From positions 11,374 to 75,373 of the forward strand of contig JBAZJH010000001.1 in NCBI GenBank assembly GCA_041651415.1: a DNA stretch of 64,000 bases, in the 5' to 3' direction. Each line of letters begins with the position of its first letter. Positions within the stretch are counted from its first letter, which is position 1. The translations under genes and the position numbers were made by a program. The notes below the pieces were generated by a model. That model saw only the letters and a program-made list of their open reading frames with translations, was not told the DNA's origin and made no database searches. This DNA is from Minisyncoccota bacterium. GTDB taxonomy: Bacteria > Patescibacteriota > Minisyncoccia > UBA6257 > XYB1-36-10. Shown in pieces: positions 5,175 through 5,860 of the stretch.

Positions 5175-5276
5175 CCAGCCCCAGTTTCACTAAGAAGGCT
5201 AAAAAATCTTTTAGCTTTTATAGAGTGAAAAAATGCGCTTAATTTTATTTAGCGTAAATAGCGAAACTGGGGCTGG
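5175..5276 (+). repeat. 16S intervening element 1 (V6 helix tip), ~100 nt with a 17-nt terminal inverted repeat
   Basis: ccagccccagtttcact ... agcgaaactggggctgg, inserted between the conserved blocks ggaaacattggccctc and actgttagaacgggtgctgcacgg. Confidence 0.65.
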
Positions 5277-5389
5277 ACTGTTAGAACGGGTGCTGCACGG
5301 TTGTCGTCAGCTCGTGCCTTGAGGTGTTCCCTTAAGTGGGGTAACGAGCGCAACCCCTGTCGTCTGTTATAAGTGTCAGACGAGACTGC

Positions 5390-5496
5390 CCAGCCCCAAT
5401 TTCACTAGAAAATATTAAAATTATTTTATTTTGATATTTTTTGAGAAGTTATCGCCAGAAATTTTCTTTGGCGTTGTTAGCGAAATTGGGGCTGGG
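5390..5496 (+). repeat. 16S intervening element 2 (hairpin corresponding to E. coli ~1160-1175)
   Basis: ccagccccaatttcact ... agcgaaattggggctgg, inserted between gactgcc and ggaggaaggtgggg. Confidence 0.65.
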
Positions 5497-5760
5497 AGGA
5501 AGGTGGGGATGACGTCAAATCAGCGTGGCCCTCTGATACCCTGGGCGACACTCATGCTACAATGGCCGTTATAAAGGGTTGCTAAGCCGCGAGGCGGAGC
5601 TAATCTCAAAAAAGCGGCCTCAGTTCGGATTGGAGTCTGCAACTCGACTCCATGAAGCCGGAATCGCTAGTAATCGCGCATCAGCCATGGCGCGGTGAAT
5701 ACGTTCTCGAGTCCTGTACTCACTGCCCGTCACGTCAAGGGAGCCGGAAGCACCTGAAGA

Positions 5761-5860
5761 CCAGCCCCAATTTCACTATAAAAATATTAAATTTTCATTT
5801 AATTTTTTTAAAAAGTTAGCGTCGGAAATTTTTCGATGTTGTCAGCGAAATTGGGGCTGG
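5761..5860 (+). repeat. 16S intervening element 3 (helix 44 tip)
   Basis: ccagccccaatttcact ... agcgaaattggggctgg, inserted between cacctgaagac and ttaagggtgagttcggtgac. Confidence 0.65.

Follow-up and report, generated by a model that had tools for sequence, protein, structure and literature searches.

What are the three look-alike hairpins that interrupt the 16S rRNA gene of this Minisyncoccota genome, and how did a single gene come to hold all of them? Insertions are a recurrent feature of rRNA genes in CPR bacteria. About half of them are introns with homing endonucleases; LAGLIDADG enzymes are encoded in group I/II introns, and GIY-YIG enzymes in non-intron insertions (PMC11270868). The same 2024 survey sets short ORF-less non-intron insertions and GIY-YIG non-intron insertions apart as separate, uncharacterised classes, suggests that short insertions at classical 23S sites are RNase III-type intervening sequences, and mentions neither hairpins nor inverted repeats for these insertions (PMC11270868). 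The gene considered here lies in the window, by which is meant the whole 64-kb stretch of DNA that was analysed, from an organism annotated by NCBI as Candidatus Paceibacterota. The insertion points were placed by the Rfam alignment and by BLAST of the flanks against the E. coli 16S rRNA, and the internal parts were delimited by folding, with the following result:

4153-5938, + strand: complete bacterial 16S (SSU) rRNA gene (Rfam RF00177, 1364.7 bits, model positions 1-1533)
5175-5276, + strand, 102 nt: element copy 1, in place of the second V6 hairpin's loop (E. coli ~1029-1035); arms at 5175-5191 and 5260-5276, enclosing two hairpins (~5194-5219, ~5234-5256)
5390-5495, + strand, 106 nt: element copy 2, at the h40 tip (E. 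coli 1161-1175); arms at 5390-5406 and 5479-5495, enclosing two hairpins (~5408-5441, ~5453-5473)
5761-5860, + strand, 100 nt: element copy 3, in place of distal h44 (E. coli ~1436-1464); arms at 5761-5777 and 5844-5860, enclosing two hairpins (~5779-5810, ~5817-5841)

The gene measures 1786 nt, compared to the 1533 positions of the Rfam model, and the alignment to this model assigns 97, 98, and 77 extra nucleotides to the hairpin tips of V6, h40, and h44, respectively. A separately deposited assembly record (L121, ENA ERZ27247363) is 100% identical to the window over 13.9 kb that include the 16S gene. An earlier note, made from the sequence of this locus, had described the inserts as AT-rich segments of ~100 nt that sit at helix tips and are bounded by one shared inverted repeat, and this description is borne out: the inserts are 102, 106, and 100 nt long, their interiors have a GC content of 20-25% versus 52% for the 16S core, their placement at hairpin tips follows from the Rfam alignment, and CCAGCCCCARTTTCRCT is found in six exact occurrences within the 64-kb window, three per strand, all of them bounding the three inserts, where 0.01 would be expected by chance. 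When up to three mismatches were allowed, no further copies of this arm above chance were found in the window.

The three inserts are closed by a common helix of 14 bp, CCAGCCCCARUUUC/GAAAYUGGGGCUGG, and in the fold of each of them this perfect stem is followed by an A.C mismatch, another 2-3 pairs, and a set of two AT-rich internal hairpins, with minimum free energies of -39 to -45 kcal/mol and z-scores of -8.3 to -9.0 for the whole inserts; the interiors folded alone also form two hairpins (z -3.2 to -3.9 versus shuffles). Being extended by the native helix, the 14 perfect pairs and the 2-3 that follow them constitute a stem that is long enough for an RNase III substrate. The Rfam alignment and the empty sites of two relatives (L248 and L148, see below) indicate that the terminal loop of a peripheral rRNA helix has been replaced by an extended stem-loop, and that the outermost bases of the arms coincide with the native or pre-existing helix, namely CC/GG in V6, CCAG/CUGG in h40, where they match the bacterial consensus stem of Rfam (CCgg../..ccGG), and CCAGCCC/GGGCUGG in h44. 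In V6, a native 8-nt loop between CC and GG has been swapped for the element. None of the three copies in the window contains an ORF, and no Rfam family, group I/II intron, or small self-cleaving ribozyme fits the elements at the gathering threshold; at E<=10, Rfam returns only chance matches far below threshold to unrelated families, mostly hairpin models of miRNA precursors.

The earlier note had also pointed to a four-helix-bundle gene near the 16S gene, at 1498-1875. The identity of this gene was confirmed as a 23S_rRNA_IVP protein (PF05635, E 1.3e-34), but a connection to the inserts was rejected, since neither family arms nor any other inverted repeat surround it. The 64-kb window yielded no RNase III gene motif, and no match to 23S/LSU rRNA was detected by Rfam anywhere within it, including the region that follows the 16S gene.

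Relatives were located by synteny, using as anchors the response regulator and L19 genes that lie downstream of the 16S gene; the release-factor gene, also used as an anchor, revealed no 16S nearby in relatives, and no 16S lay next to two response-regulator homologues of greater distance. The closest relative found, L248 (GCA_028709185.1), possesses a 16S gene that is 98.6% identical to that of the window over the first 1,024 nt, with no indels, and L148, a JGI contig, represents a more distant relative with the same gene order as the window. L247 is an independent Logan assembly. Alignment of these sequences reveals the following states at the three sites:

V6 site: element in the window; empty in L248, CCCUCC-GAUUUAUC-GGA (as DNA, CCCTCC-GATTTATC-GGA), and empty in L148, CCC-UUCG-GGG (as DNA, CCC-TTCG-GGG)
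h40 site: element with the same arms in the window, in L248 (1665-1769), and in L148 (2335-2434)
h44 site: element in the window; another insert of 78 nt in L248 and L247; short UUCG-capped hairpin in L148

The 78-nt h44 insert of L248 and L247 has only the base, CCAGCCC/GGGCUGG, in common with the element of the window. The h40 copy is carried by relatives from three other sources and is present and alignable in all three lineages, as an ordinary expansion segment would be, and this does not apply to the V6 and h44 copies, which are missing from both L248 and L148 and are thus sporadic among near relatives. The V6 and h44 copies are therefore not fixed in the lineage. Such presence/absence polymorphism in sister genomes had been set beforehand as a test of the earlier proposal, and the case that would speak against it, all three segments being retained across the lineage, was looked for and not found in L248 and L148. 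The shared arms and the polymorphic sites in relatives thus uphold the view that one small non-coding hairpin element has come to occupy three tips of a single gene.

Alignment of the copies shows the three inserts to be paralogues. Their 17-nt arms are identical except for one compensated pair, and the termini remain common to all three after alignment, as had been anticipated, together with a derived A.C mismatch. This A15.C mismatch and the junction motif CACUA...AGCGAAA are found in the three copies of the window and in the h40 copy of L248, whereas the h40 copy of L148 and the 23S relatives described below have A-U in place of A15.C; the shared features link both the h44 copy and the V6 copy to the element that the lineage itself carries, and not to donors from elsewhere. 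The window h40, window h44, and L248 h40 copies are mutually equidistant, at 78-81% identity (interiors 68-73%), the window h44 and h40 copies being 80% identical overall and 71% in the interior. The V6 copy shows 64-69% identity to all other 16S copies, and its interior is 58% identical to that of the h40 copy, the same divergence as that of a distant orthologue. At stem position 10, which has undergone a compensated change, the V6 copy and L148 have G-C, whereas window h40, window h44, and L248 have A-U, which makes the donor and the age of the V6 copy less clear: it may be older and have been lost in L248, or it may have come from another donor, such as a paralogue in a 23S gene outside the window.

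The orthologous h40 copies of the window and L248 have identical arms and interiors that are 73% identical, in a gene with 98.6% identity over its first 1,024 nt, which shows that the interior evolves fast as the stem is held; a two-hairpin interior is nonetheless common to all five 16S copies (three in the window, and h40 of L248 and of L148). The h40 copy, whose presence in two relatives speaks for its age, is probably the ancestral one. The h44 copy, and probably the V6 copy, would have been added later by copying of the lineage's own element, with each insertion taking the form of a replacement of the loop or tip of a surface hairpin without target-site duplication. At h44, the pre-existing CCAGCCC/GGGCUGG stem could have provided the short homology for conversion.

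The existence of such elements beyond this gene was addressed by one two-arm pattern scan of metagenomes, in which the arm sequence and the length range were forced by the pattern. Among the 120 matches listed, 93 belong to two unrelated GC-rich palindromic repeat families, which leaves at least ~25 useful copies; frequencies and enrichment in RNA genes taken from this small sample are biased by the pattern. The remaining matches have in common the extended arm CCAGCCCCA(N)TTTC, and their positions were assigned by Rfam. A loose single-arm pattern run on the genome collection yielded 120 listed matches that were all chance single arms, none with both arms, and is uninformative regarding relatives. 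All 27 copies that were tabulated have a 14-bp closing helix, and their length is 89-124 nt, mostly 97-106 nt; their flanks prolong the helix and are complementary, not direct, repeats, and no target-site duplication is present. The conserved closing helix that defines the family is 14 bp long, CCAGCCCCNNUUUY / RAAANNGGGGCUGG, and surrounds a fast-evolving interior whose architecture varies across the family from rods to Y shapes and three-hairpin forms. The locations include:

23S rRNA: copies in L184, L205, L225, and L175 (Rfam)
RNase P RNA: copy in L189, between P5 and P8 (Rfam)
tmRNA-adjacent: copy in L194, 28 nt upstream of the tmRNA gene (Rfam)
tRNA-cluster spacer: copy in L156 (Rfam)
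Intergenic: copy in L137, between protein genes
mRNA leaders: promoter-proximal copies in L178, in a 194-nt cassette that occurs three times, immediately 5' of operons

When their flanks were compared by BLAST with E. coli 23S rRNA, ~100-nt copies of 23S genes fell at ~131-148 (H9) and ~1164-1185 (H45), which are the classical sites of intervening sequences, and others at ~1868-1874 (tip of H68), ~224-232, and ~271-300. A relaxed search revealed five short copies in the 23S gene of L184, which also has one long copy, and two in that of L175. In the L178 cassette, the hairpin directly follows a perfect TATAAT box. One and the same 14-bp stem sequence recurs on contigs of 34-58% GC, most of which appear to be of CPR identity, judging from gene content and intron-rich rRNA. 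These placements show a family with a conserved closing helix at the hairpin tips of several structured RNAs and at non-RNA sites, and no specific description of a family of this kind was found in the literature. Transfer by a viral vector was considered and rejected, neither short nor long forms being found on IMG/VR viral contigs.

The long forms with full CCAG...CTGG arms measure 307-317 nt and surround an ORF for a GIY-YIG nuclease of ~86 aa. These ORFs (PF01541, E 1e-14 to 1e-18) lie within inverted repeats of 20-25 bp that start with the family arms, in L225, L184, L253-256 (Taylorbacteria), L257-260 (TARA), and L261-263 (intergenic). In addition, a profile search for small GIY-YIG proteins returned 4,550 at E<=1e-8, of which four were looked up (P0257, P0267, P0275, and P0300). 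Individual cases are as follows:

L225, 23S insert: 312 nt, family arms, 89-aa GIY-YIG protein
L184, 23S insert orthologous to that of L225: arms CCAGCACC.../...GGUGCUGG
L148, 16S h17 insert: ~305 nt, GIY-YIG, closed by CCCCCACUUUU/AAAAGUGGGGG, with a variant core
P0257 (Taylorbacteria): in 23S, at the same site as the L225/L184 insert; enclosed by a 24-bp inverted repeat whose beginning is formed by the family arms
P0267 (TARA ocean samples): likewise at this 23S site; similar repeat of 25 bp
P0275: intergenic; enclosed by a 21-bp repeat, TCCAGCCCCAGTTTTAGGCAA; a mini copy of 63 nt lies 55 nt downstream
P0300: arms different; abuts a tRNA gene

In L184, the genome-specific arm variant CCAGCACC/GGUGCUGG is found both on the long form and on one short copy. 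Short and long forms have little in common beyond the arms (13-20 nt mostly, ~22-33 nt in one L184 copy), and the idea that short forms are recent internal deletions of a nuclease cassette is not supported, the arms being all that they share with the long forms. The organism of the window encodes a free-standing GIY-YIG homologue, P0254 (L121 2214-2492), ~4 kb upstream of the start of the window and ~10 kb upstream of the 16S gene, and no family arms surround its gene. The nearest solved structure is that of the UPF0213 protein BH0048 (PDB 1ZG2); the GIY-YIG domain is not known to act as a transposase.

Selection at the level of RNA was approached by comparing strands. Of the 13 RNA-gene copies whose orientation is known, 12 have the more stable fold in the sense strand; the mean advantage over the antisense strand is 5.9 kcal/mol, and G.U pairs number 54 in sense versus 22 in antisense; the folding advantage and the G.U excess suggest selection on the RNA structure within the host transcript. 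These comparisons indicate that the hairpins are under structural constraint as RNA, being selected to fold as helix extensions. RNAalifold recovered only the closing stem from an alignment of the five 16S copies, an outcome of the fact that the interiors do not align by column, so that the case for a conserved interior is built on folds and shuffles of the single copies. Wobbles and mismatches in the stem consist of U.G pairs in the 23S copies and A.C in the 16S copies, and probably also in the mRNA-leader copies of L178, the shared A.C being a defect in the sense RNA. The direction of wobble in the 14-bp stem, considered as a sign of RNA selection, was dropped as uninformative. Regarding their fate, the inserts would be transcribed within the pre-16S RNA, after which, with about equal chances, the long perfect stems may be cut by RNase III as in classical intervening sequences, yielding a fragmented 16S, or the inserts may persist as expansion segments.

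Intervening sequences that are excised from rRNA by RNase III are known from helices 9, 25, and 45 of 23S rRNA in Salmonella, Leptospira, Coxiella, Campylobacter, and alpha-proteobacteria, and more rarely from 16S rRNA, in Helicobacter and Clostridium paradoxum. The present elements resemble them in the size of the short forms, the conversion of a terminal loop into a long stem-loop, the AT-rich interior, the sporadic occurrence in near relatives, and the use of H9 and H45 by the 23S members; as in some classical intervening sequences, an ORF may be present, here in the long forms. They are unlike them in that one closing-helix sequence recurs across many sites, across 16S, 23S, and RNase P RNA, and in non-RNA DNA, that several paralogous copies lie in one gene, and that the enclosed ORF encodes a GIY-YIG nuclease and not a four-helix-bundle IVP/S23p protein. 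A second resemblance is to MITEs and to the palindromic elements of Rickettsia, which are likewise non-coding, multi-copy elements of ~100 nt with conserved terminal inverted repeats. Here too, longer relatives with the same termini encode an enzyme that acts on DNA, and copies are able to persist at places where an additional hairpin does no harm to the host product. However, MITEs differ in several respects, as the present copies lack a target-site duplication, their flanks prolong the helix and a native loop is replaced, their interiors are unrelated from one genome to another, the enzyme that goes with them consists of a GIY-YIG nuclease domain alone and is not a known transposase, and the copies are apparently strongly concentrated in structured-RNA genes, in a sample that is biased by the search pattern.

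The homing-endonuclease elements of CPR bacteria share with this family the host group, the genes, and the presence of GIY-YIG ORFs in non-intron rRNA insertions, and ORF-less derivatives are expected in their cycle of gain, degeneration, and loss; unlike the introns among them, the present elements have no intron structure and occupy variable hairpin tips, not the conserved core. Another precedent comes from heterocystous cyanobacteria, in which helix P12 of RNase P RNA is lengthened by STRR repeats. These are also dispersed genomic repeats that have entered a peripheral helix of a catalytic RNA and have left that RNA undestroyed, but they are tandem heptamers of another host, with no nuclease, and are not spread across several RNA species.

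Taken together, we consider it somewhat more probable than any opposite conclusion that the inserts are ORF-less members of a hairpin-bounded, intervening-sequence-like family of CPR-type genomes that has multiplied within the gene and spreads at the level of DNA. Such spread could proceed through breaks made by the nuclease of the family and repaired from another copy, or through microhomology-driven conversion between hairpins; the comparison of copies and empty sites points to a DNA-level route in which loops are replaced by copying. A bolder reading, which we hold tentatively, is that of a new class of mobile element, comprising a stem-enclosed nuclease cassette and ORF-less miniatures, that specifically colonises hairpin loops, both at helix tips in the genes for 16S, 23S, and RNase P RNA and at palindromes between genes. 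In such a class, a small UPF0213/Slx1-like GIY-YIG enzyme would cut DNA hairpins or cruciforms, and repair of the break from another copy would replace the loop and leave no target duplication.

An explanation in which the nuclease has no part appears rather unlikely: the inserts would be classical RNase III-processed intervening sequences and nothing else, excised without religation, with the stem as the processing site and the GIY-YIG ORFs as secondary invaders that play no role in spread. Loop replacement at helix tips, the ~100-nt size, the AT-rich interior, the long perfect stem, and the sporadic presence in near relatives all fit this account, as do the 23S relatives at H9 and H45, the textbook sites of intervening sequences. 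RNase III has little sequence specificity, however, and a requirement for mere pairing leaves unexplained the recurrence of one 14-bp stem sequence in many RNAs, intergenic DNA, and mRNA leaders; nor does this account explain why one nuclease family is repeatedly enclosed by these arms. In its favour, the same has been proposed for the short 23S insertions of CPR bacteria (PMC11270868). That the inserts are instead retained, functional expansion segments is less probable still. Y-shaped modules would remain in the 30S subunit, in 23S rRNA, and in RNase P RNA, where they would dock a lineage-specific RNA-binding protein and would have been duplicated under selection for this function, much as one protein-binding motif recurs in several archaeal RNAs. 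The stem sequence that is kept in place as interiors turn over, the constraint on sense-strand folding, the two-hairpin architecture maintained in five 16S copies, and the location of all sites in peripheral, solvent-exposed hairpins would be expected of such modules. However, the interior architecture is not kept across the wider family, copies are also found between genes and in mRNA leaders, no candidate for the docking protein emerged, and the lack of two of the three window copies in L248, despite 98.6% 16S identity over the first 1,024 nt, implies that they are dispensable. Finally, AT-rich sequence forms hairpins easily, and metagenome-assembled CPR genomes can be misassembled at rRNA genes, but independent origin by convergence or a chimeric assembly retains hardly any probability and is refuted by the six exact matches to the 17-nt arm against 0.01 expected, the derived A.C mismatch and junction motif common to the copies, the 71% identity of the h40 and h44 interiors, the identical sequence in a second public record, and the h40 copy of relatives from three other sources.

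This locus shows that both unexplained classes of CPR insertion, short ORF-less and GIY-YIG, can be members of a single sequence family, which is characterised by its conserved closing helix. The earlier interpretation, of one hairpin element that colonised three helix tips, is supported, and is extended to a wider family with nuclease-carrying members, which stands a real chance of being a distinct type of hairpin-targeting mobile element. This family multiplies within one gene over the time that separates close relatives and is not confined to rRNA. In practice, surveys of CPR bacteria are affected as well, as such inserts change how long 16S amplicons are and how primers behave at V6 and towards the 3' end of the gene. 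A candidate enzyme is offered by the GIY-YIG proteins that stand alone in genomes, which are abundant (4,550 at the above threshold of E<=1e-8) and functionally uncharacterised, and the element suggests a testable route by which the helix tips of essential RNAs could grow, through the copying of a ready-made hairpin module and not through slow slippage. If the reading as a mobile class is true, much of the 'short uncharacterised' class of rRNA insertions, a hallmark of CPR bacteria, would be explained by it.

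The window's organism carries a GIY-YIG nuclease gene outside any hairpin element, and its more distant relative L148, with the same gene order, carries another such gene as a 16S insert; these and the further features considered here are listed below.

L121 (public record of the same organism), 2214-2492: free-standing GIY-YIG nuclease gene P0254, 93 aa, lying upstream of the window by ~4 kb
L148, 1360-1665: GIY-YIG insert of ~305 nt encoding an 81-aa protein, in 16S h17 (V3 region)
Window, 1498-1875 (+): four-helix-bundle IVP gene, with an SLT_2-domain gene on one side and a release-factor gene on the other
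Window, 5925-5938, with the corresponding 3' ends in L148 and in L248 (the closest relative): altered 16S 3' tail
Window, 3234-3329 and 20294-20374; 20555-20644 and 22231-22298: two small intergenic inverted-repeat families
L178 (metagenome contig), 30-223, 1803-1996 and 10485-10628: three copies of a 194-nt cassette
L144, 2456-2560; L149, 13283-13387; L182, 991-1095 (metagenome contigs): one half-arm, CCCAGCCCCAGTTTCGCAGTAGGAACAGGGTTTA, in tandem repeats of 34 nt

P0254 is homologous to the nucleases that the arms of the hairpin family enclose elsewhere; its gene begins ~40 nt after the preceding gene's stop codon, and no flanking inverted repeat was found around it. The L148 insert is closed by CCCCCACUUUU/AAAAGUGGGGG; the h17 site of the window's 16S holds a short native hairpin. 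The protein P0300 (loci L264-L266) belongs to a second type of GIY-YIG cassette, likewise hairpin-bounded, whose 20-bp inverted repeat, GCCCCTCACCCAGAAACTTA, differs from the family arms; this cassette adjoins a tRNA gene on that gene's 5' side, where GGGGCCCTTAGC is duplicated, and occurs in tandem in L265.

The four-helix-bundle gene upstream of the 16S was assigned in the earlier note to the family often carried in 23S intervening sequences, and this is borne out by a clear match to PF05635 (23S_rRNA_IVP, E 1.3e-34), besides a weak bAvd-like match. Because the SLT_2-domain and release-factor genes are immediate neighbours in the relatives L123-L127, the IVP gene itself is, judging from gene order, a lineage-specific insertion; neither family arms nor any other inverted repeat was found in its flanks.

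Other repeats were also encountered. The two intergenic families of the window, which between them have arms of 22-29 nt and 18-38 nt, show no sequence relationship to the 16S elements. The half-arm repeats terminate in a single complementary arm, and those of L144 lie ~250 nt from a tRNA gene cluster. The loose pattern of the metagenome scan was also satisfied by two abundant GC-rich palindromic families, GGGGGCAGCCCCCNTTTCCTAGCAAAAGGGGTCAG... and AAAATCCCCCCAGCCCCCTTTTCAAGGGGGAG..., unrelated to the 16S elements and hosted by contigs of 50-67% GC, which make up 93 of the 120 matches listed (119 loci, L128-L246). In L178, each cassette consists of a perfect TATAAT box with a family hairpin directly after it, directly 5' of minus-strand operons (rpsM-rpsK-rpsD, ung), a layout which suggests a portable promoter with a 5'-hairpin leader.

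Within the 16S itself, the 3' tail has GGAACAAUUAAAUA in place of the bacterial consensus GGAUCACCUCCUUU, and the CCUCC anti-Shine-Dalgarno sequence appears to be missing in the lineage of the window, L148 and L248. In L248, h44 (~2050-2127) bears a 78-nt, multi-hairpin insert, identical to that at the start of L247 (a Logan assembly), whose interior is unrelated to the window's insert but which stands on the same CCAGCCC/GGGCUGG base; by this sequence comparison, the h44 tip is a recurrent expansion site within this clade.
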